DNA of 59,844 nt from Candidatus Nomurabacteria bacterium RIFCSPLOWO2_01_FULL_39_18 (lineage in GTDB: Bacteria; Patescibacteriota; Minisyncoccia; Phycocordibacterales; UBA9973): NCBI GenBank assembly GCA_001787005.1, contig MFUV01000009.1, positions 1,929-61,772 of the forward strand, in the 5' to 3' direction. Positions 363 through 54,762 of this stretch are shown here, piece by piece. Below the pieces are notes generated by a model. It saw only the letters and a list, made by a program, of their open reading frames with translations, ran no database searches and was not told where the DNA came from. A program made the position numbers and the translations under genes. How positions within the stretch are numbered: the first letter of the stretch is position 1; each line of letters begins with the position of its first letter.

Positions 363-414
363 CGTGAGACAGGTTGGTCTCCTATCTACTGCACTCGTTG
401 ATTCTTGAGAAGAT

Positions 415-445
<31 letters not shown>

Positions 446-728: not shown

Positions 729-840
729 GTTCTGGTGCTTTGACGGCGGAGTCACATCTCTTCCCATTCCGAACAGAGCAATTAAGCCCGCTAGTGCCGA
801 TGATAGTCTTCATGGCGAAAGTAGGTAGGCGCCAGAACAA
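729..840 (+). rRNA. rrf: 5S rRNA
   Basis: Helix I is GTTCTGGTGC (730-739) paired with GCGCCAGAAC (830-839). The loop C motif CCCATTCCGAACAGAG and GCCGATGATAG...AAGTAGG are present. It lies directly downstream of the 23S gene. Confidence 0.85.
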
Positions 841-843
841 TGT

Positions 844-883
844 ATTTGAGGAAATAAAAATAGCCTCAAATAAGGTTATTTTT
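844..883 (+). terminator. Terminator-like hairpin after 5S
   Basis: ATTTGAGG (844-851) pairs with CCTCAAAT (864-871), and a T-rich tract follows. The loop is long at 12 nt. Confidence 0.4.
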
Positions 884-1123
884 ACTACCAATATTATATA
901 TTGACTTTATCCACATTTTGATTAGTATGTATTTTAACGAGCGTTTGTTATAATTATCCTAATGGGACGTCATTAATAATTGAGAATTGATTCTTAGTTT
1001 TTTTAGGAATTAGCTCTTATTAATTAATGGTGAAATTATTAAAAGAATAACATAAGAGGTCGGAAAGGTTTTTTCCTTTTGTTTTTTTGAAAATTATTGT
1101 TAGGTAAGTACAGGAAGTAAATG

Positions 1124-1209
1124 TGGGCTTAACGAGATTCGAACTCGTACAACCTAGGCAGGATAGTGGTTTTGGAGACCACCGCGTCTACCAATTCCGC
1201 CATAAGCCC
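1124..1209 (-). tRNA. 86-nt type-II-like tRNA (Leu-like body) with anticodon CCA
   Basis: Reverse complement is GGGCTTA-TG-GCGGAATTGGTAGACGC-G-GTGGT-CTCCAAA-ACCAC-(17-nt variable region)-ACGAG-TTCGAAT-CTCGT-TAAGCCC-A. The D arm GGCGGAATTGGTAGACGCG is the bacterial tRNA-Leu signature. The anticodon loop has U33, then CCA, then A37. The discriminator is A73. Confidence 0.65.
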
Positions 1210-1292
1210 CTACTTTATATTACTTCCTGTGCTCACCCAATAATAAAATATTGAGTGAACAAAGTTTTGCAACAAACTTTAGTTTGAAAAAG

Positions 1293-1321
1293 GCTACGAA
1301 ATTATTTTCGTGGCTTTTTTC
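1293..1321 (+). terminator. Intrinsic terminator
   Basis: GCTACGAAA-TTAT-TTTCGTGGC forms a 9-bp stem followed by TTTTTTCTTT. Confidence 0.6.
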
Positions 1322-1894
1322 TTTCCGCTTCGGTGGTTTGCGGATGATTCTCGGCGTACGACTTTTTCACGTACTTACCAGTAACCGAACTTCTATAGTT
1401 TTTACCCATAGAGTTTAATCGATTTTACATTTCGACAAATGGAGGATACAGGAGCGTGTCCTCACTATATACTATGCGGCCCCCTTTCAGACAGGTAAGG
1501 AAGTGTGCCTAAAAGGAAGTCGAATAATAAACATTTTATTAAATTTTATAGACAAAATAGAACTCGTCCTGAACGGTGGGATGTGGCGAGTAGACATCTC
1601 TTTCGAGACAGCTAACGCCCCATGCGGGACATTAGGTAGAAAATTTACCAAGCATCCCACTGTTCAAGACAGGTTGAACTCTGTCTACTTCTTTTACTTC
1701 GTTTTTCTACGACGAAGGTTAAACGTACTCTACATATAATTATACAGCACAGATAATATTTATAGCAAGTGGAAAACTCTTTTTTTTGTCGCAAGTTGTC
1801 CCGCCTTACAGGCGCAGTACACCTTTTGGACTTTTTCATTCACTTCGTTCTGAAAAATTCTCAAAAGCTCTTGCGCTTGGGTCCCTATCCCAAG

Positions 1895-1990
1895 CTCACC
1901 TCTTCCCATTCCGGACAGAGAAGTTAAGCCTTGTAGAGCTGATGATACTCTTCATGGGGAAAGTAAGCAGTCGCCAACACAAAGTATTTA
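1895..1990 (+). pseudogene. Partial second 5S rRNA copy (loop C to 3' end) with no helix I partner
   Basis: CACCTCTTCCCATTCCGGACAGAGAAGTTAAGCC...GCTGATGATACTCTTCATGGGGAAAGTAAGCAGTCGCCAACACAAAGTATTTA aligns with 5S positions ~753-850. The upstream sequence cannot pair with the 3' end. Confidence 0.6.
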
Positions 1991-2003
1991 ATAAATTAAT
2001 TGA

Positions 2004-2170
2004 GCCGATGATAGGCTGAATGGTGAGAAGCGTAGCTTCGCAAGGCCGGAAGCGCGAAGGCGCTGAGGCGGGGTCGCGAGCAAAGAAAGCTTTCTTTGAC
2101 TGTGACAAAGTAGGCAGCCCGCCTTGGCTCGATGTCAAATCGAGGCAGTCGCCAGCACCGAGTACTTGAT
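2004..2170 (+). repeat. Third 5S 3'-half-like copy carrying two internal insertions
   Basis: GCCGATGATAG...GACAAAGTAGGCAG...CAGTCGCCAGCACCGAGTACTTGATTT parallels GCCGATGATAG...GAAAGTAGGTAGGCGCCAGAACAATGTATTTGA of the intact 5S. Confidence 0.45.
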
Positions 2171-3118
2171 TTAAAATTCAGAGAGAATTTTCTTTAAAAT
2201 TTCTAAGGCTTTTTCCGCGACCTCTTTATGACCTTCCTTTGTTCTGGGAAGTGCTACTGTTGTGGCACGTACAGCCAAATATTTAATAACTATAGGATCA
2301 TCCGCCAGTTTTCCATATCCCTTTTTGAAAAAATCTTTTTCTTTGTTATTTTGATATAGTAGACTTTTTGCAATATCATTCCTAGGATCGCCGGCCTGTA
2401 ACCGTCCCAGGTCGATTATTCCTGTGATTTTGCCGTGATTAATAAAGATATGTTCTTTTTTTAGATCTCTATGCAGAAGGGAAGCTTGCCCGAAATTCAA
2501 AGAATTTATTTCCTTTATAATTCTGTGCAGTTTCTCTGCTTCCTCGGGCGTTATTAAATTATTTTTTACCAAAGTGTTAACTACTTCATTGTAATTATTT
2601 TCTTGTGAGTGACAATATTCTTCATAACTTTTATATTTGCCCCTCAACTTTCCATCAACTACCTCAAGTGTACCAAACCCTTCTAGCTTAATTTCGTTTA
2701 TTCTCCTTAAAATTTCTCCCCAACTTTGATAGATCTTTTCCTTTTCTGTTTCGGATAGGTTTGTTTCTTCGAGGCTTACTCCTTCCGCAGCCTCTATTAT
2801 CATAGTTGGATGCCCAATTGTCGGTGGATTTTCTTGGTATGAAATAACTTGCGGTACGGGTATACTTTCCTCTCTAAGCATTTTATATCCCAAGCTCTCA
2901 ACTTCAAATGCCACCCCTTTTTTATTTATTCTGATGAATACCATTCTTCCTTCAGTAGTTTTTGCTCTGTATACCTCGCTTTGATAACCTTTGGCAGTTT
3001 TTTCTACTGCTGTTAAGACAATTCCAAAATCACTTTTTATAGCTTCTCCCAAACGAACGGGATCCATTTCTATTACCGTCAGTTTTGGAGTTGCTGGTTT
3101 TGGGTCCATATTTTTCAT
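2171..3118 (-). CDS. Phosphotransferase of the APH/choline-kinase (protein-kinase-like) family
   Basis: 315-aa ORF with a Brenner-type catalytic loop LLHRDLKKEHIF and the downstream GIIDLGRLQAGDPRNDI motif. Confidence 0.7.
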   Translation of the reverse strand: MKNMDPKPATPKLTVIEMDPVRLGEAIKSDFGIVLTAVEKTAKGYQSEVYRAKTTEGRMVFIRINKKGVAFEVESLGYKMLREESIPVPQVISYQENPPTIGHPTMIIEAAEGVSLEETNLSETEKEKIYQSWGEILRRINEIKLEGFGTLEVVDGKLRGKYKSYEEYCHSQENNYNEVVNTLVKNNLITPEEAEKLHRIIKEINSLNFGQASLLHRDLKKEHIFINHGKITGIIDLGRLQAGDPRNDIAKSLLYQNNKEKDFFKKGYGKLADDPIVIKYLAVRATTVALPRTKEGHKEVAEKALEILKKILSEF

Positions 3119-3134
3119 TATAACTTATTTTTAA

Positions 3135-3197
3135 CGAAAGTAGGTTATTTCTGAGAGTCTCAGACTCGATGAGCAGTCGCCAGAACAATGTATTTAA
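3135..3197 (+). repeat. Fourth 5S 3'-end fragment
   Basis: CGAAAGTAGGT-(28-nt hairpin insert)-CAGTCGCCAGAACAATGTATTTAAG. The last 24 nt are nearly identical to the trailer of the intact 5S (831-853). Confidence 0.55.
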
Positions 3198-3515
3198 GAA
3201 AACTAACTTTATAAATGAAGTGCTGTCGCCGTCCCGGTGGAACGGCGACGCACTTTTACTGGCATAGTGACGTTCCGTATTTTACGCCGAGGCGGAAGGC
3301 CAAGACGAGAAATATGAGGAAGAACACTATGTAAATCGCGATAAGGATTCTTCGGAGACCCTTACAGGTTTCCGTGATCCGACCGCAAACAGCCTCGATC
3401 TGTGTCACAGGTACCTCCGTGTTTATTGTACTATATATGTTAGAATTTTTTTTGCGTTGCCTGCCCACCCTTGGAGGGCTTGCTTTTGAAATCTGATAGT
3501 GTAGGATTGCTTTAT

Positions 3516-3596
3516 CCAGAGAGGAGGGGTGCATCGTCGGGATCGAAACGTCCCCAAAAGCTGATTTTTAGGCCTAACCAGGCACCCCCCTCTTGG
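3516..3596 (+). ncRNA. Long hairpin A of an ORF-poor structured region
   Basis: CCAGAGAGGAGGGGTGC (3516-3532) pairs with GCACCCCCCTCTTGG (3582-3596), about 15 bp with two bulged A residues. An intrinsic terminator lies 30 nt downstream. Confidence 0.35.
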
Positions 3597-3625
3597 ATAC
3601 CAGATTTGTTCTTAATCGTTTCGTC

Positions 3626-3661
3626 GCCCGAGTTCGTCCATGTGATGAACCGGGCTTTTTT
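3626..3661 (+). terminator. Intrinsic terminator
   Basis: GCCCGAGTTC (3626-3635) pairs with GAACCGGGC (3647-3655), followed by TTTTTT. Confidence 0.6.
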
Positions 3662-3702
3662 CATGCTTGACTTGGGAAATTTAATAACTTACCATTAACT
3701 TG

Positions 3703-3780
3703 CCTGGAGAGGGAGGATGCATGTTGTAGTTGGGAGACGCGCCCCTGACCACAACCGATACCCCGCACCTCCTTCTCTGG
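3703..3780 (+). ncRNA. Long hairpin B, a paralogue of hairpin A
   Basis: CCTGGAGAGGGAGGATGC (3703-3720) pairs with GCACCTCCTTCTCTGG (3765-3780). It has the same purine-arm / pyrimidine-arm design and the same GC-AT apical start as hairpin A. Confidence 0.35.
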
Positions 3781-4046
3781 GTGGGGATGTTCTTTTATAT
3801 ATTTTTTGGTATTCATCGTTTTTTTTGCCCATTTCGTATTTCGCGGAGTGGGTTTTGTGTTTTTATATTGCATGTGGGAAAATGAGTGGGGGTACTCTAA
3901 AATGAGGATCACGTTCTTAACTTCCTGGATAAAGTTGTTCCAGGGATTCATCCGGGTATTGCGCATGTCCGGGTGGTGATATCGCTGGGCCTGTAGTTTG
4001 GTCTTTTCGACGAATTACAGGCGTCCAGCTTTTATTTTTATTTTCA

Positions 4047-4055
4047 TGTTACAAT
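4047..4055 (+). promoter_or_regulatory. Extended -10 promoter (TGtTACAAT), 6 nt before the ATG at 4062
   Basis: The motif and its spacing were read directly. No Shine-Dalgarno sequence lies between them. Confidence 0.5.
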
Positions 4056-4061
4056 GTTTTT

Positions 4062-4844
4062 ATGACTTGGGCGTTCAAGAGGCAAGCTTTTTATATCAGT
4101 ATTCTTATTTTGGTTGTTTTGGTGTTCGGATTTATAATAATTTATCCAAGTTTAAACCAGCCGCCAACCTGCGCAGACAACGAGCAAAATGGAGATGAAA
4201 CAGGGGTGGACTGCGGAGGCTCCTGTCTCCGGGCGTGCATAGCGCAGATGGATGAAGTTTCTGTTCTCTGGTCTCGAGCTTTTAGAGTCGTGCCGGGGCG
4301 CTATAACGCAGTCGCTTATCTTATCAATCACAACCAAGACACAGCTATCAATAAAATAAGTTACCGATTTCGCTTTGCGGATGAAAATAATGTTTATATA
4401 GGCAAGCGCGACGGCACTACTTTTATCCCCCCAGCGGGCAAATTTACCATCTTTGAGCCGGCAATAGATGTCGGGCATTCTATTCCTGTATACGCGACTT
4501 TTGAATTTACGCAGGCGCCCGAATGGATCCAAGTGTCTAAAGAAAAAGTTAACCAAATAAAAATGTTGGTTTCAAACATAACTCTCACAGACGAACAAGT
4601 AAGCCCTAGACTCTCTGCTACCATCAAGAATGATTCACTCTTTATTGTTCCAGAAGTGGATGTGGTTGCGATTTTATATGATGCTTCCGGCAACGCGCTC
4701 GCCGCCAGCCGTACTTATCTGGATGTATTAAATGGGGAAGAGAGCAGAGATTTAAATTTTACATGGCCAGAGCCCATCTCTGGAGTAGTGACCCTCAAAG
4801 AGATAATTCCGATGTACAATATTTTTTCGGCTAAGTTAAAATGA
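4062..4844 (+). CDS. Membrane-anchored secreted protein of unknown function
   Basis: 260-aa ORF with an N-terminal TM helix and the Cys-rich CADNEQNGDETGVDCGGSC segment. Its stop overlaps the next start (ATGA). Confidence 0.6.
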   Translation: MTWAFKRQAFYISILILVVLVFGFIIIYPSLNQPPTCADNEQNGDETGVDCGGSCLRACIAQMDEVSVLWSRAFRVVPGRYNAVAYLINHNQDTAINKISYRFRFADENNVYIGKRDGTTFIPPAGKFTIFEPAIDVGHSIPVYATFEFTQAPEWIQVSKEKVNQIKMLVSNITLTDEQVSPRLSATIKNDSLFIVPEVDVVAILYDASGNALAASRTYLDVLNGEESRDLNFTWPEPISGVVTLKEIIPMYNIFSAKLK

Positions 4845-5971
4845 TAGAAAAAATTTCTAACAGGATAGATTGGATGCTGGTCTTTTTCATACTTCCCATA
4901 ATTGCCGCGGGGCTTGTGACAATGAAATCATTTACGGGAGGAGAAAATATTGGCGGATTTTTCGACAAACAGATTATCTGGGTGCTGGTGGGTTTCTCTG
5001 TTTTCTTCATTTTTTCTTTTATTGATTTTCGATTTTTAAAACGTACTTCCGTAATAGTGTTTTTATTTCTTTTGATTTCCTTAATTTTGCTTACACTTTT
5101 TATTTTGGGGCGTGTTTCTCACGGCGCAACGAGTTGGTTTGACTTCGGGTACTTTTCTTTTCAACCGGTTGATATGATGAAGCTGGTGCTGGTGCTCATT
5201 TTAGCAAAGTATTTTTCCCGGCGTCACGTGGAAATCAAGGACATCAAGCACATTTTTATATCATTTTTCTATGCTCTCATTCCTCTCATTTTGGTTTTGC
5301 TTCAGCCGGATTTCGGTTCGACGATGATCATATTTTTTATTTGGCTAGGCATGGTCTTTGTTTCTGGAATTTCCAAAACGCATTTATTTTTGGTTTTTTC
5401 TTCTGGTGTGGCAATCTTCGCCATGATGTGGTTTCTAGTTTTCGCGCCTTATCAAAAAGCCCGTATTTTTAATTTCATAAATCCATTAGCCGATATTCAT
5501 GGAACAGGTTACAATGCTTTCCAGTCAACTATTGCTGTCGGCTCAGGCGAGATTCTAGGCAAGGGTCTAGGCTTCGGTACGCAGTCGAGATTGAAATTTT
5601 TACCAGAGCCCCAGTCTGATTTTATTTTTGCCGCTTTTGCCGAAGAATGGGGCCTAGTCGGTAGTGTTTTGATCCTGTTACTTTATGGTCTTGTTATTTG
5701 GAGGATTCTTTATTTTTCTGCCCTGGGAGCGTCTAATTTCGAGATACTTTTCGGCATGGGCATTGCTATTTTTTTCATGAGTCATATATTCATAAATATT
5801 GGCATGAACCTGGGGCTCTTGCCCGTGACTGGCATTCCGCTTCCTTTTATGAGCTATGGCGGCTCGCATCTTTTGGCTGAGTTTGCCGGCTTGGGTATAT
5901 TAATGAGCATGCGTAGATACGCAAGGCCCGCGCATCGCGACGATATGAAAAATGAATTTCTGGGAGCATGA
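4841..5971 (+). CDS. SEDS-family peptidoglycan polymerase (FtsW/RodA)
   Basis: 376-aa polytopic ORF with SEDS hallmarks: QPDFGS, FAEEWGLVG, GLLPVTGIPLPFMSYGGS. Confidence 0.85.
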   Translation: MIEKISNRIDWMLVFFILPIIAAGLVTMKSFTGGENIGGFFDKQIIWVLVGFSVFFIFSFIDFRFLKRTSVIVFLFLLISLILLTLFILGRVSHGATSWFDFGYFSFQPVDMMKLVLVLILAKYFSRRHVEIKDIKHIFISFFYALIPLILVLLQPDFGSTMIIFFIWLGMVFVSGISKTHLFLVFSSGVAIFAMMWFLVFAPYQKARIFNFINPLADIHGTGYNAFQSTIAVGSGEILGKGLGFGTQSRLKFLPEPQSDFIFAAFAEEWGLVGSVLILLLYGLVIWRILYFSALGASNFEILFGMGIAIFFMSHIFINIGMNLGLLPVTGIPLPFMSYGGSHLLAEFAGLGILMSMRRYARPAHRDDMKNEFLGA

Positions 5972-6025
5972 CCTCACCCCTTCGCCCCTCTCCTTGTCAA
6001 GGAGAGGGGTTGGGGGAGAGGTGAA
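5970..6025. repeat. Family-1 nested palindrome, copy B (intergenic, SEDS/folD)
   Basis: GACCTCACCCC-TTCG-CCCCTCTCC-TTGTCAA-GGAGAGGGG-TT-GGGGGAGAGGTGAA. Confidence 0.85.
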
Positions 6026-6032
6026 TTATTAT

Positions 6033-6914
6033 ATGGAAATTATTGATGGGAGGAAATTAAATAAAGAAATTTTGGGAAAAGTGAAGGCGGAGGTCGTTTC
6101 GCTTTCCTTCCAGCCGATTTTTTGCGATGTCTTGGTGGGGAGCGACCCGGCAAGTGTTCAGTATGTGGGGATGAAAGCAAAAACGGCAGAAGCGGTGGGG
6201 ATGAAATTTCACAGTGCGAATTTCCCCGCATCCATAACCACGGAGGAGCTGATAAAAGAAATAAAAATTCTGAACAAAGTAGAAAATATGTGCGGAATAA
6301 TTATTCAGCTTCCATTGCCTCCTCATATTGAAAAACAATTAGCGCTTGACGCTCTTGACGTGCATCTTGATGTGGACTGCCTGGGTACGATAGCGAGTGA
6401 AAAATTTTATCAAGGTGAAACCTTGATAAAATATCCTACTGCGCTGGCTTGTATGGCGCTTCTTGATTCAATTAATTTAGACTTAACGCAGAAAAAAATA
6501 GTTGTTTTTGGGCAGGGGATGCTGGTGGGCAAGCCTGTGACAGCCCTGCTCAAATTTAGAAATTTGTCGCCAACAATTATTACTAGCAAAACTTCCGATA
6601 AAGAAAAAATTATTAAGCAAGCAGATGTTATAATTTCAGGCATAGGGAAGGGGAAATACATTACAGGTGATATGATTAAAGAAGGAGCAGTTTTGATTGA
6701 TGCTGGAACTTCTGAATCCGGAGCCGGCATCGTGGGCGATGTTAATTTGGAGTCTGTCAAAGATGTGGCAGGATTTGTTTCTCCCGTGCCCGGCGGCGTG
6801 GGGCCCGTAACTGTGGCCATGCTTCTCAAGAATGTGTTAACCGTGGCGAAGAACAAAGACCTCACCCCAGCCCCTCTCCTTGTAAAGGAGAGGGGAAGAG
6901 AGATTTTTAAATAA
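6033..6914 (+). CDS. folD: Bifunctional methylenetetrahydrofolate dehydrogenase/cyclohydrolase
   Basis: MEIIDGRKL..., GIIIQLPLP and VPGGVGPVTVAMLLKNV are present. The start was moved to the ATG at 6033 because the upstream 27 codons only translate the palindrome. The C-terminal tail DLTPAPLLVKERGREIFK is encoded by repeat copy C. Confidence 0.85.
   Translation: MEIIDGRKLNKEILGKVKAEVVSLSFQPIFCDVLVGSDPASVQYVGMKAKTAEAVGMKFHSANFPASITTEELIKEIKILNKVENMCGIIIQLPLPPHIEKQLALDALDVHLDVDCLGTIASEKFYQGETLIKYPTALACMALLDSINLDLTQKKIVVFGQGMLVGKPVTALLKFRNLSPTIITSKTSDKEKIIKQADVIISGIGKGKYITGDMIKEGAVLIDAGTSESGAGIVGDVNLESVKDVAGFVSPVPGGVGPVTVAMLLKNVLTVAKNKDLTPAPLLVKERGREIFK
6858..6895. repeat. Family-1 palindrome, copy C (left outer arm plus inner palindrome only)
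   Basis: GACCTCACCCC-AG-CCCCTCTCC-TTGTAAA-GGAGAGGGG. The right outer arm is absent. Confidence 0.8.
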
Positions 6915-7396: not shown

Positions 7397-7783
7397 ATGA
7401 CTTTATTAAAAAACAAATCCAAATTATTACCGAGACGGAGAGAATTAAGGAAAAATCAAACCAAGCACGAGGAAATTTTATGGGAGCATATAAGAAATCG
7501 AAAACTTGGATTTAAGTTTAAAAGGCAGTACAGTATAGGTGGTTATGTTTTAGATTTTTATTGTCCAAAAATCAAATTAGCCATCGAGTTAGACGGGAAC
7601 CAGCATTTAGAAAAAGAAAATTTTTTATACGATGAAGACAGAACTAATTTTTTAAAAGTTTTGGATTGTAAAGTTTTAAGGATTAGAAATTTAGAATTGG
7701 AAACAAATTTAAAAGAAGTTTTATTAAAAATTAAGCATTTTTCCCCTCTACTTGATAAGGAGAGGGGTTTAGGGGTGAGGTGA
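7397..7783 (+). CDS. DUF559 (Vsr-like / restriction-endonuclease-fold) domain protein
   Basis: ELRKNQTKHEEILWEHIRNRKLGFKFKRQYSIGGYVLDFYCPKIKLAIELDGNQH...DRTNFL...VLRIRN fits the DUF559 pattern. The C-terminus PLLDKERGLGVR is encoded by repeat copy D. Confidence 0.8.
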   Translation: MTLLKNKSKLLPRRRELRKNQTKHEEILWEHIRNRKLGFKFKRQYSIGGYVLDFYCPKIKLAIELDGNQHLEKENFLYDEDRTNFLKVLDCKVLRIRNLELETNLKEVLLKIKHFSPLLDKERGLGVR

Positions 7784-16725: not shown

Positions 16726-17042
16726 TTGCGGGAGGCCGAATCGAACGGCCGTCTCAAGGTTATGCTTTACCACCATAGTTTTCACTACCCTTCAAATACT
16801 TTTAGGTTTGTGGTCTGGACTATACCATCTCCTTTTTTGAAAAACCAAAATTAAGGAGCTCATCGTCTAGTCTCTACACTTTTATTTCTGAAAAAATTCA
16901 GAAAATTTAGCTCGGAATTGTCTTTCTGTTTTCTCACAGAGAGGATTTCTCCGAATTTGATGAGTTCATACCTCAAAGTTTCCCAAGAGGGGGCCCATAG
17001 AATAACGCTGAGCCTTGCGAGATGCCTCTTCTCTATCCCGCT
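16726..17042 (-). tRNA. tRNA-Met(CAU), initiator-like, split by a 246-nt group I intron in the anticodon loop
   Basis: Exon 1 is AGCGGGA-TA-GAGA-AGAGGCA-TCTC-G-CAAGG-CT. Exon 2 is CATAA-CCTTG-AGAC-GGCCG-TTCGATT-CGGCC-TCCCGCA-A. The acceptor resembles E. coli tRNA-fMet (CGCGGGG/CCCCGCAA), with an unpaired 1:72 position and A73. Confidence 0.7.
16765..17010 (-). ncRNA. Group I intron (ORF-less) in the tRNA-Met anticodon loop, between U33 and C34
   Basis: The 5' exon ends in U and the intron ends in G. Exon GGCU can pair with intron GGCC (P1, with a U.G pair). GTAGAGACTAGAC and GGTATAGTCCAGAC match the R and S (P7) consensus elements. Confidence 0.7.
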
Positions 17043-17117
17043 ATACAAATCAGTCTATATTAAATTAAAAATATTTGCAAGTTGTTTTTGTACCCATTAT
17101 AGTACATAATATACCTT

Positions 17118-22508: not shown

Positions 22509-22565
22509 ATGAATATAGGATTTACAAAAATGCATGGTTTGGGAAATGACAAAAATTATGCCTGA
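22509..22565 (+). pseudogene. 18-codon relic of the diaminopimelate epimerase (DapF) N-terminus
   Basis: Encodes MNIGFTKMHGLGNDKNYA*. FxKMHGLGNDF is the conserved DapF N-terminus. The relic overlaps the prfB start out of frame. Confidence 0.45.
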
Positions 22566-23490
22566 TGATACACACGATATAGATGAACAAATTAGGAAAC
22601 TAGAGGAAGGTATGGCACTTCCGGATTTTTGGAATGATAAGGTTAAGGCGCGGGCGGTACTCCGAGAACTGGCGGAGCTGAAGAATAAAAAGGAAGGCTT
22701 AGGAAAATATGATAAAGGCAATGCCATACTTACAATAATTTCTGGCGCGGGCGGAGACGATGCCGAAGATTTCTCCGCTATGCTTTTGTCGATGTATCTG
22801 AAATATGCTGACAGAAAAGGATGGGGCATTTCTTTTATTCATGAACACAAGAATGATCACGGGGGTTATAGGAATACCACAATAGAAATTTCTGACCCCA
22901 CCCTTCGCCCTCCCCTTGCCAAGGGGAGGGTTGGGGAGAGGTCGGGTCCCTACGGGACCTTGAAAAACGAATCCGGCGTGCACCGCCTGGTGCGCATTTC
23001 TCCCTTTAATGCCAAGAAGCTACGCCACACGTCCTTTTCTCTAGTTGAAGTTTTGCCGAAATTTTCAAAATTAGAAGAACGCGATGTGGCTATACCTGAA
23101 GCGGATTTAAAAATAGAATTTGCTCGCTCGTCAGGCCCGGGAGGTCAAAATGTGAATAAAAGAGAAACAGCTGTCAGGATTGTGCACGTGCCGACCGGCA
23201 TTTCTGCGCAAGCTTCCGGCGAACGCTCCCAAGAACAGAATCGTGAGTCTGCTCTGTCCATCTTGCGGGCGAAGATCTTCAAAAAAGCGCAGGATGAGAA
23301 AAAGAGCATTGAGGAAAGCTTGAAAATAAATAAAGGCACAGAAATAGAATGGGGGAGTCAGATACGTTCATACGTACTTCATCCTTATAAAATGGTCAAA
23401 GATCATAGAACTGGAGCGGAGACTTCGAACATTGATGCGGTTTTGGATGGTGATATAGACTTATTTGTGGATGCAGAAAAAGACTTGTAA
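22534..23490 (+). CDS. prfB: Peptide chain release factor 2 (short form, no recognisable +1 frameshift site)
   Basis: Has SPF (HRLVRISPFN), GGQ (SSGPGGQNVNK) and WGSQIRSYVLHPY. At 318 aa it has a much reduced domain 1. Alternative starts are at 22546 and 22558. Confidence 0.85.
   Translation: MVWEMTKIMPDDTHDIDEQIRKLEEGMALPDFWNDKVKARAVLRELAELKNKKEGLGKYDKGNAILTIISGAGGDDAEDFSAMLLSMYLKYADRKGWGISFIHEHKNDHGGYRNTTIEISDPTLRPPLAKGRVGERSGPYGTLKNESGVHRLVRISPFNAKKLRHTSFSLVEVLPKFSKLEERDVAIPEADLKIEFARSSGPGGQNVNKRETAVRIVHVPTGISAQASGERSQEQNRESALSILRAKIFKKAQDEKKSIEESLKINKGTEIEWGSQIRSYVLHPYKMVKDHRTGAETSNIDAVLDGDIDLFVDAEKDL
22894..22944. repeat. Family-1 palindrome, copy E, a 51-nt in-frame insertion in prfB
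   Basis: GACCCCACCC-TTCG-CCCTCCCC-TTGCCAA-GGGGAGGG-TT-GGGGAGAGGTCG encodes DPTLRPPLAKGRVGERS, between TIEIS and GPYGTLKNESGVHRLV. Confidence 0.85.
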
Positions 23491-53844: not shown

Positions 53845-53925
53845 CCACCATCCCGTCCAAATTAATTTAGGCACTTCTACTTAATAAGGAGGAAAGGGGC
53901 TTAGACCCTGTACTCTTTATTAAAA

Positions 53926-53944
53926 ACGGAAGCCTTGCTTCCGT
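53926..53944. repeat. Family-4 hairpin (ACGGAAGC-CTT-GCTTCCGT), 5' flank of the tyrosine transposase gene
   Basis: The 23-nt string AAAAACGGAAGCCTTGCTTCCGT (53922-53944) is repeated identically at 54662-54684. Confidence 0.8.
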
Positions 53945-53970
53945 CTCTTAGCTGGTATATAGTATATATT

Positions 53971-54663
53971 ATGTCTATAAGAAAAACCGATTTTATTAAA
54001 GGTGAGTATTATCATATATATAATAGAGGTAATAGTAAACAGAAAATTTTTCTAGATGATAAAGATCGAGAAAGATTTTTGAAACTCTTGTATCTTTGTA
54101 ACTCCAAACAAAGAATCGATTTTAGAGACGATATTGTAAAAAAGAAAATAAATGTTTGGGATTTTGAAAAAGGAGAATCAATAGTTAGTATTGGTGCCTG
54201 GGTTTTGATGCCAAATCATTTTCATTTATATCTTGCTCAAAAAACGGAAGCAAGGCTTCCGTCAGGTGGTGCGATTACTGATTTTCTACACAGGGTTCTG
54301 ACTGCTTACTCAAAGTATTTTAATGCTAAATATCACAGAACTGGTTCTTTATTTGAAGATAAGTTTAAATCTGTTCACATAAGTAAAGATAATCAGGCTA
54401 GATATCTATTTTCATATATACATCTTAATCCAGTAAAATTAATCAATTCAAAATGGAAAGAGCAGGGAATTAAAGAAAAAAATAAAACTCTAAACTTTTT
54501 GGATTCATATAAATGGAGTAGTTATTTTGATTATTTAGAAATTGTTCGACCAGAAAAAAGAATAATAAATAGGATTAATTTTTTAAACTGCTTCAAAACT
54601 AGGCGTGATTTTCAAAAAGAGATTTTCGATTGGATAAAAATCAAATCAGATAAAAACCAATAA
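53971..54663 (+). CDS. IS200/IS605-like Y1 (HUH) transposase of the REP-associated (RAYT) type
   Basis: Has YYHIYNRGN, the HUH motif PNHFHLYL, YFNAKYHRTGSLFEDKFKS and the catalytic Tyr context YIHLNPVK. Confidence 0.8.
   Translation: MSIRKTDFIKGEYYHIYNRGNSKQKIFLDDKDRERFLKLLYLCNSKQRIDFRDDIVKKKINVWDFEKGESIVSIGAWVLMPNHFHLYLAQKTEARLPSGGAITDFLHRVLTAYSKYFNAKYHRTGSLFEDKFKSVHISKDNQARYLFSYIHLNPVKLINSKWKEQGIKEKNKTLNFLDSYKWSSYFDYLEIVRPEKRIINRINFLNCFKTRRDFQKEIFDWIKIKSDKNQ
54244..54262. repeat. Family-4 hairpin, inverted copy inside the transposase ORF
   Basis: ACGGAAGC-AAG-GCTTCCGT is the exact reverse complement of the flanking hairpins. It encodes part of KTEARLPSG. Confidence 0.8.
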
Positions 54664-54665
54664 AA

Positions 54666-54684
54666 ACGGAAGCCTTGCTTCCGT
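54666..54684. repeat. Family-4 hairpin, 3' flank of the transposase gene
   Basis: Identical to 53926-53944 and begins 3 nt after the stop codon. Confidence 0.8.
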
Positions 54685-54762
54685 TTTTGAAAGAGGATTA
54701 CACTTCACTCGAAATAAATTTCGGGTACTTCTCCTTGTGGAGGAGGGTCTGGGTGGTGATTC

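Follow-up and report, generated by a model that had tools for sequence, protein, structure and literature searches.

Behind the ribosomal RNA operon (rrn) of Candidatus Nomurabacteria bacterium RIFCSPLOWO2_01_FULL_39_18, an intact 5S rRNA gene is followed by further, partial copies of itself, with a tRNA gene and a kinase gene lodged between them, and the question raised by this locus is how such an array came about. The stretch analyzed here (the window) comprises 59,844 nucleotides of contig MFUV01000009.1 and begins within the 3' part of the 23S rRNA gene, whose end lies near position 642. The original prediction was that integrative elements target the 3' end of the 5S gene, each integration displacing a copy of that end, or that the copies are attC-like cassette boundaries. 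Neither proposal was borne out. The reading preferred here, to which about even credence is given, is that the array represents layered debris, left at the end of the single rrn operon by repeated recombination without an integrase.

For comparison, related contigs designated by L numbers were used. These included a set retrieved with RodA from metagenome-assembled genomes (MAGs) of Nomurabacteria/Paceibacterota (80 relatives), contigs of the window's own population from several independent samples (L001-L006), and 80 metagenome loci (L094-L173) retrieved with the pattern of a dispersed element described below, the c3 core. The anatomy of the array, its synteny, the mixing of 5S alleles, the nesting of 5S genes, the dispersal of structured elements and the lack of a recombinase among the open reading frames (ORFs) scanned were read directly from this material.

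Anatomy of the 5S array

The array consists of an intact 5S gene (729-840) and three co-oriented 5S-derived pieces, all of which retain the 3' strand of helix I and ~12 nt of flanking sequence. Matches to the 13-mer CAGTCGCCAGAAC with at most two mismatches are found at 826, 1968, 2146 and 3174; these four fall in 2.4 kb and one more lies elsewhere, while 0.51 would be expected in the whole window and 0 of 100 shuffles reached five. The flanks of about 12 nt found 3' of copies 1 to 4 (aatgtatttgagg, aaagtatttaata, cgagtacttgat and aatgtatttaag, respectively) are related to each other. A common core at the copy ends had been predicted, and it was found at all four, with a related flank after each. 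Alignment of the four copies, suggested as a check, showed the pieces to be real and corrected their anatomy, with inserts recognized in copies 2, 3 and 4. The claim of an intact gene plus three copies of its 3' portion was confirmed for all four, with the correction that copy 2 also has a 5' remnant. Mis-assembly was ruled out, because the array is 99.9-100% identical across independently sampled contigs (L001-L006).

Copy 1 is an intact 5S module of the allele termed T1 (717-851, +), composed of the gene at 729-840 and processing-stem halves at 717-728 and 839-851. It matches the full Rfam model RF00001 at 731-837 with 58.2 bits against a gathering threshold of 38, and helix I is paired. Its 3' flank pairs with its 5' flank, extending helix I into the processing stem (folding z-score -4.1). 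Over its full length, own flanks included, copy 1 shares 96-97% identity with the only 5S of L010 and with that of L031. The allele is complete and has a 5' flank of its own; it is not a hybrid of a native 5' part and an element-derived 3' part.

Upstream of an element inserted in copy 2, a remnant corresponding to 5S positions ~11-30 of a T2-type allele was read from the sequence (1785-1805, +), and copy 2 is therefore a nearly full-length T2 5S pseudogene, split in the loop C region by an element of about 100 nt. The string tttgtcgcaag in this remnant is an exact 11-mer of the T2 5S (gtgttggtgatttgtcgcaaggg) and stands immediately 5' of the inserted element. The body of copy 2 (1897-1993, +) comprises T2-type positions ~27-112 and the 3' flank aaagtatttaata, and its homology to the 5S genes of relatives begins at 1897 by both BLAST and nhmmer. 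Rfam reported a 5S match at 1875-1979 (45.4 bits) with four helix I pairs broken; the 22 nt before 1897, forced by the model into this broken helix, are part of the inserted element. The identity of copy 2 is 96.4% to the 5S of L095, which is intact, and 82.5% to the resident copy 1.

The inserted element, here called the leader (1799-1900, +), is a four-helix structure of about 100 nt. By nhmmer it was found in L010 (both orientations), L013, L014, L022, L028, L029 (away from rrn), L055, L079, L089 and metagenome loci. In the alignment, 94% of cells were paired and 15 of 26 pairs were altered on both sides, a level equalled by 0 of 500 shuffles. The leader is an independent dispersed structured element.

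Copy 3 (2002-2170, +) covers 5S positions ~62-112, is interrupted twice, and terminates in a T2b-type end, cagtcgccagcac, with the flank cgagtacttgat. It had been taken for a 5S 3' end, which is correct for its tail, but its center (2018-2108) is a dispersed element. This c3 core (2018-2108, +), a structured element dispersed in the Candidate Phyla Radiation (CPR), occupies the place of 5S helix IV and loop D. The pattern GGTGAGAAGC..GCTTCGCAAGGCCGGA of this ~90-nt element occurred in more than 119 metagenome contigs, and in 62 of the 80 loci retrieved no 5S was detected on the contig. The layout is AGGGTGAGAAGC-hairpin-GCTTCGCAAGGCCGGAG-hairpin-GAGGCGGGGTCGCG-hairpin-GTGAC, with compensatory changes in 10 of 31 pairs (six sequences) and a folding z-score of -2.2. 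No Rfam match and no strand bias relative to adjoining genes was found for it. The c3 core is an independent, previously unannotated, dispersed structured element.

Two other interpretations of the c3 core were considered and rejected. A riboswitch was ruled out by the lack of strand bias toward downstream genes and of an Rfam family. An expanded yet working 5S was rejected as well, as no intact example was found and units within 5S pieces always coexist with a separate intact 5S. The c3 core often adjoins the leader, in either orientation, and sometimes lies inside longer perfect stems (e.g., L129).

The second interruption of copy 3 is a small hairpin insert in its tail (2118-2145, +), recognized by inspection of the bases alone, with a GGCAG duplication at its flanks. 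At the same site, just before the final 3' strand, copy 4 carries a ctcgatg-containing insert. Copy 4 (3135-3198, +) consists of a 25-nt T1-like 5S tail (cgaaagtagg ... cagtcgccagaac) and the T1 flank aatgtatttaag, with the 29-nt hairpin insert at 3145-3173. Tails built in the same way are present in L017, L028, L041, L045 and L095. The folding z-score of copy 4 is -1.25, and it is not an attC-like palindrome. Neither copy 3 nor copy 4 gave an Rfam 5S match even at E<=5. With the hairpin insert ignored, copy 4 and the tail of copy 1 form a direct repeat of ~36 nt, 89% identical, around a 2.3-kb block (854-3134).

The adjacency of copies 2 and 3 has a counterpart in L095. Window positions 1897-2124, spanning the two copies, are 87.8% identical to L095 1570-1806, where the 5S is intact; the same block is 82% identical to L040. 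The order in L095 begins with an outer T1 5S (positions 1-35), the leader, cattccgaacaga and a palindrome, continues with an inner T2 5S that is intact and bounded by long stem flanks of its own, then ccgatgatagtc and the c3 core, and ends with aaagtagctag, a second palindrome, cgccagaac and the T1 flank. In L045, L055, L079 and L095, an outer 5S is split and houses an inner one, which is intact and keeps its own stem flanks; variants of such nests occur in the metagenome loci L124 and L165. Compared with L095, the window has lost what lies between the outer loop C repeat and the inner one, so that the leader is joined straight to inner positions 27-112 and the inner gene is destroyed. Copies 2 and 3 appear to derive from the nested 5S-in-5S structure that is still intact in L095. 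The interval between them is accordingly not a cassette boundary, as it would have been inherited from that structure.

Variation of alleles and cargo in related genomes

The order 23S-5S-(variable gap)-260-aa gene-rodA was conserved in 80 related loci. The right boundary in the window is formed by the 260-aa gene and rodA (4062-5971, +), followed by folD; the 260-aa gene itself occupies 4062-4844 and lies immediately 5' of rodA in 42 of 42 relatives. The gap between the 5S and the 260-aa gene measures 28-47 nt in L012, L034 and L048, 3.2 kb in the window and up to 8.1 kb in L022. Such empty sites were seen only in other species (L012, L034, L048) and not within the window's population. The gap contents in relatives are unrelated and include PurD, MetK, HIT, SET, EamA, histidine kinases, peptidase S51, DUF975, SIMPL and NYN. 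The comparison across relatives for presence or absence of cassettes, also suggested earlier, thus revealed differences between species in both gap length and cargo, and supports the locus as a real hot spot of insertion and turnover.

Two 5S alleles were distinguished, T1 (GTTCTGG...CCAGAAC; copy 1-like) and T2 (GTGTTGG...CCAGCAC; copies 2-3-like). They are 76-82% identical to each other, compared with mostly 84-100% within a type (closer relatives), and each has its own co-varying 5' and 3' processing-stem flanks. On the rodA tree, T1 and T2 are interleaved. Co-transfer of the 23S end with the 5S type was considered and rejected, as the 23S end of the window is no closer to those of T1 carriers.

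Extra 5S pieces were present in 14 of the ~64 relatives having a 5S (~22%). Their strand is always that of the 5S; those downstream of the intact gene are 3' pieces, and those upstream of it are 5' pieces. Several are closer to a foreign 5S than to the resident one; the piece in L010, for example, is 100% identical to the 5S of L034 and 83% identical to its own. A piece in L028 is 98.7% identical to the resident 5S, and local duplication therefore happens too. The 5' limits of the fragments are scattered, at 5S positions ~11, 22, 34, 53, 62, 75 and 88.

The interval between copies 3 and 4 is filled exactly by an APH-family kinase gene, as the original prediction had stated (2171-3118, -; 315 aa; Pfam PF01636, 5.6e-21). 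The ORF abuts copy 3, and its start is 16 nt from copy 4. The kinase is missing from the same interval in ~40 close relatives, and the family is small (28 matches). Its closest distinct homolog (54% amino acid identity) occupies the same locus in L091/L092, and this divergence is near that of the neighboring core genes (59-74% amino acid identity). The order in L092 is T2b-type 5S (flank cgagtacttgatt), 430 nt, kinase (-), NUDIX, two small ORFs, 260-aa gene and rodA, with no 5S piece on the far side of the kinase. Another homolog adjoins NUDIX and a TraG/VirD4-like gene; no NUDIX remnant was found at window positions 3199-4061. A travelling cassette was rejected on the grounds of the small family and of a closest homolog at the same locus without flanking repeats. 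As the tail of copy 3 is of T2b type and L092 has a T2b 5S with a kinase in the same orientation, the 5S-kinase linkage is shared. The kinase may either have arrived together with a T2b-type 5S or be an old resident beside one.

Two variants of the kinase region were also noted. L090 is a strain variant in which the kinase carries an in-frame deletion of 29 amino acids. In L091 the 23S end is joined directly to the kinase region, without a 5S; L092, 99% identical, has the 5S.

The odd tRNA with anticodon CCA, predicted in the first interval, was located at 1123-1209 (-) by ARAGORN and Rfam, within a 27-bp inverted repeat (1094-1246, -; folding z-score -5.2). It is cargo of the window's population only, and no tRNA was found between the 5S and the 260-aa gene in 60 relatives. 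Its body is of the leucine type, with the D arm GCGGAATTGGTAGACGC, a long variable arm, discriminator A73 and the anticodon loop CUCCAAA. If charged by leucyl-tRNA synthetase, it could insert leucine at UGG codons.

Proposed history and rival explanations

From these observations we infer a mechanism of recombination and an order of events. Two diverged 5S alleles, T1 and T2, would circulate in the Nomurabacteria/Paceibacteria family, and DNA of relatives would enter by recombination, with the 5S and adjoining rrn sequence serving as portable homology. The 3' end of the 23S gene (399-642, +; Rfam LSU_rRNA_bacteria, 221 bits) is 80-98% identical to that of relatives and is a possible anchor. 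The other junction would be illegitimate or based on microhomology, and candidate routes are homology-facilitated illegitimate recombination or, inside the 5S, single crossovers of the Campbell type. With every event a working 5S module would be installed together with the donor DNA adjoining it, and the resident 5S would stay behind as a co-oriented stump. Such stumps would then be shortened through deletions between 5S repeats and colonized by small hairpin-bounded elements, namely the leader, the c3 core and CCCCGTA-type palindromes.

Applied to the window, copy 1 would be the working T1 gene, copies 2 and 3 a nested structure minus its inner 5' half, lost by deletion between two loop C repeats, and copy 4 the tail of an older T1-like gene. 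The kinase would have come with, or always adjoined, a T2b-type 5S. Speculatively, the initiating breaks might stem from homing endonucleases in the adjacent 23S.

Several points weigh against this history. No junction was caught in the act, the junction microhomologies are only 2-7 nt long and were read by eye, and rrn regions in MAGs can be chimeric. All nine contigs of the window's population have the same full array, so that no interval shows an empty/filled polymorphism. The fragment limits at ~53, ~62-66 and ~88 and the loop C insertion site recur in several genomes, which could reflect site specificity and not shared ancestry. A decayed integrase island would resemble the ~36-nt repeat pair around 2.3 kb. 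Finally, the ORFs scanned for recombinases come from ~60 kb of the genome and from short MAG contigs, and a recombinase could be encoded elsewhere.

Within this scope, the window interval 841-4061 yielded no tyrosine or serine recombinase (ORFs, Pfam), and the 39 cargo ORFs scanned in relatives yielded neither a recombinase nor a transposase. Of the ~44 window ORFs of at least 150 aa beyond the locus, 30 were scanned, and no tyrosine recombinase, serine recombinase or IntI was seen among them. That no integrase is visible in the window had been noted at the outset, and this held for the ORFs scanned. A search of viral contigs for phage or plasmid attP sites gave 0 matches for two 5S-end patterns and for the c3 core.

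The only candidate was a distant IS200/RAYT-like gene for a Y1 (HUH) transposase (53935-54663, +), ~50 kb from the array (RAYT, REP-associated tyrosine transposase; REP, repetitive extragenic palindromic). It matched NCBIfam REP_Tyr_transpos NF047646 with 41 bits (E 1.4e-10), below the cut-off of 80, and Pfam Y1_Tnp PF01797 with 20.6 bits, below the cut-off of 23. HUH-like NHFHL and Tyr-containing YIHLNP motifs are present. The gene is flanked by two direct copies of one hairpin (53922-53948 and 54662-54688; AAAACGGAAGC-CTT-GCTTCCGT), and an inverted copy lies within it at 54247-54259. Judging by these features, the gene is a possible trans-acting mover of hairpin elements.

A model in which integrative elements or integron-like cassettes use the 5S 3' end as attB, each integration displacing a 5S end and the enzyme being decayed or acting in trans, is considered very unlikely. 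It would account for the co-oriented direct repeats of 5S end and flank that bracket cargo, including the ~36-nt repeat of the copy 1 tail and copy 4 around 854-3134, for the exact fit of the kinase between two repeats, for the empty sites in L012, L034 and L048, and for the recurrence of some fragment end points. However, no integrase was found in the window interval, in the 39 cargo ORFs of relatives or in the other window ORFs scanned, the fragment limits vary widely, and the 5S-end patterns had no matches in viral contigs. Copy 1 is no hybrid but an entire T1 allele that has a 5' flank of its own, copy 2 retains part of its own 5' half, and the adjacency of copies 2 and 3 is apparently a nested-gene relic. 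The kinase of L092 adjoins a 5S without repeats. As for attC-like boundaries, the pieces are not palindromic, as the z-score of copy 4 illustrates, and no IntI was found. Still less probable, and in our view scarcely credible, is retention of the extra pieces for a function, for instance in processing or terminating the rrn transcript or within novel structured RNAs. Each piece does retain the 3' stem half, in relatives often along with a terminator (L028), and both the leader and the c3 core have compensatory base changes; since both are also present at a distance from any 5S, nothing about the 5S pieces follows from the structure of these elements. Moreover, ~78% of relatives have no such pieces, the extent of the pieces differs, and their 5' parts are eroded.

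A purely local history is rated as unlikely, though not strongly so. It would have ancestral tandem 5S paralogues (T1, T2), of which one was kept while the others decayed in place, with the cargo reflecting ordinary gain and loss without any role of the 5S. Fragments nearly identical to the resident 5S in L022 and L028 (98.7% in the latter) do indicate local duplication, the nest with leader and c3 core occurs in several species (L055, L095, L124, L165) as if inherited, and an EamA-SET-histidine kinase block recurs like ordinary ancestral content. Against this, the order of types varies, being T1-T2 in the window, L010 and L014 and T2-T1 in L013, while in L045 and L095 T2 is nested within T1; the identity of fragments to the working 5S of other species reaches 96-100%, compared with only 74-83% to the resident; and the T1/T2 patchwork on the rodA tree would demand many parallel losses. 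The Y1 HUH transposase might also move hairpin-bounded modules in trans into 5S loops, including the leader, the c3 core, palindromes and even a whole 5S with its stems, a proposal of very low probability. It draws on the HUH and Tyr motifs and flanking hairpin repeats of the RAYT-like gene, on inserts at the same loop positions in different 5S alleles, on elements in both orientations and away from 5S, and on inner 5S modules bounded by long inverted repeats (L045, L055, L079). The transposase match, however, reaches neither of the curated cut-offs, rRNA processing stems are a simpler explanation of the inverted repeats around 5S modules, the leader and the c3 core occur once each in 60 kb, and the transposase-flanking hairpins share only a 5-bp stem with the 5S inserts. 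It is equally doubtful that 5S loops are a preferred landing site of hairpin-bounded modules, including whole 5S genes and cargo, moved by the Y1 HUH enzyme or by an unseen recombinase; the rrn end of CPR bacteria would then be a cassette platform that works without an integrase and targets a structural RNA gene.

Relation to known systems and neighboring features

Williams is said to have described, in 2002, genomic islands that occupy tRNA and tmRNA genes by means of tyrosine integrases. The array resembles such islands in its structural RNA gene target, in co-oriented 3'-end repeats bracketing foreign DNA, in the empty sites of relatives, and in that the presumably newest material lies next to the intact gene. 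It differs in that no integrase, fixed crossover point or hybrid gene was found, in that whole replacement genes with their own 5' flanks appear to arrive, and in having the 5S as target. We know of no integrase system for the 5S gene, and a literature search gave no report of a bacterial 5S gene used as an integration site. With integron cassettes the array shares a short repeat beside a single promoter-poor ORF (the kinase). In contrast to them, it was found without IntI, attI or Pc, its repeats are 5S-derived and not attC-like, and the intervals in relatives contain zero to several ORFs in either orientation.

Homology-facilitated illegitimate and homeologous recombination in natural transformation has been described in Acinetobacter and pneumococcus (reviewed, e.g., in PMC3410848). 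The likeness would lie in a conserved rrn or 5S anchor on one side, a microhomology junction on the other, the entry of foreign DNA and the truncation of resident DNA. Unlike in those systems, the process would be deduced here from the comparative anatomy of uncultured bacteria, and nests with both outer halves kept would call for either a crossover of the Campbell type or another junction.

Insertion sequences within CPR bacterial 16S and 23S rRNA genes (Tsurumaki et al. 2024, PMC11270868; 2022, PMC9297842) concern the same bacterial group and are ORF-less structured inserts in rRNA gene loops; group I introns and LAGLIDADG genes are also present in the adjacent 23S here. The inserts of the array, in contrast, lie in extra, apparently dead 5S copies. 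Among 645 CPR 5S genes, the same surveys reported none with an insertion of 100 bp or more, and they gave one rRNA copy per genome (PMC11270868, PMC9297842). REP/REPIN elements and their RAYT transposases (PMC3116915, PMC3337134) are comparable in combining short palindromic or structured intergenic repeats with a single-copy, hairpin-flanked Y1 HUH transposase-like gene. Here, however, the transposase match is below threshold, the leader and the c3 core are larger, multi-helix and low in copy number, and the link between protein and elements would be conjectural.

Because the surveys report one copy and no large 5S insertions, and no report of a 5S integration site was found, the array is not judged to be a new system. 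It is a hot spot with gene stumps and, as the evidence stands, an unusual scar field that can be explained. The rrn terminus would accordingly be a hot spot of gene exchange in genomes whose appearance is otherwise streamlined, with few mobile elements. The window and about a fifth of the relatives carry extra, broken and nested 5S copies with structured inserts, with alleles apparently swapped among species, and the traces of earlier recombination may be legible in the array. The leader and the c3 core are two structured elements without previous annotation, one of them present in more than 119 metagenome contigs. Extra 5S matches in CPR bins should not be taken for contamination or additional operons. 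If a dedicated enzyme were indeed responsible, the targeting would be of a new kind.

Between copy 4 and the conserved operon lies a non-coding stretch (3199-4061) with two similar long hairpins at 3513-3599 and 3700-3783 (folding z-scores -3.3 and -2.8), each followed by a terminator-like site in a terminator scan. Both are closed by a common stem, CCAGAGAGGAGG...CCTCCTTCTCTGG. Neither had an Rfam match or a homolog in the 80 relatives, where window positions 841-1800 and 3200-3980 likewise had no counterpart.

In the 23S gene, a group I intron occupies 143-354. In L003 (1-834, compared with window 371-426), the 23S carries an additional insertion that encodes LAGLIDADG and is located at window position 426. 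In L001 (3045-3564), the 23S end is 92% identical and the 23S-5S spacer contains a hairpin-bounded insert of ~360 nt; this variant spacer joins the otherwise identical array ~16 nt 5' of the 5S, through either recombination or an assembly chimera. It was not used as proof of recent recombination, since a MEGAHIT chimera is possible. The 23S-5S spacer of L040 (702-790) contains a tRNA-like gene with a 4-nt anticodon (aagc), detected by ARAGORN.

Farther downstream in the window, a tRNA(CAU) gene at ~16745-17045 (-), missed by ARAGORN, has its anticodon loop split by a group I intron (16791-17020); exon 1 is GCGGGATAGAGAAGAGGCATCTCGCAAGGCT and exon 2 is CATAACCTTGAGACGGCCGTTCGATTCGGCCTCCCGCA. 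A REP-like palindrome, CCCCTCTCCTTGTCAAGGAGAGGGG, is located at gene ends at 35-59, 5985-6009, 6871-6895, 7744-7766 and 22908-22930, and one variant lies within a release-factor ORF (22534-23490). In L029, a palindrome of this kind surrounds a copy of the leader.

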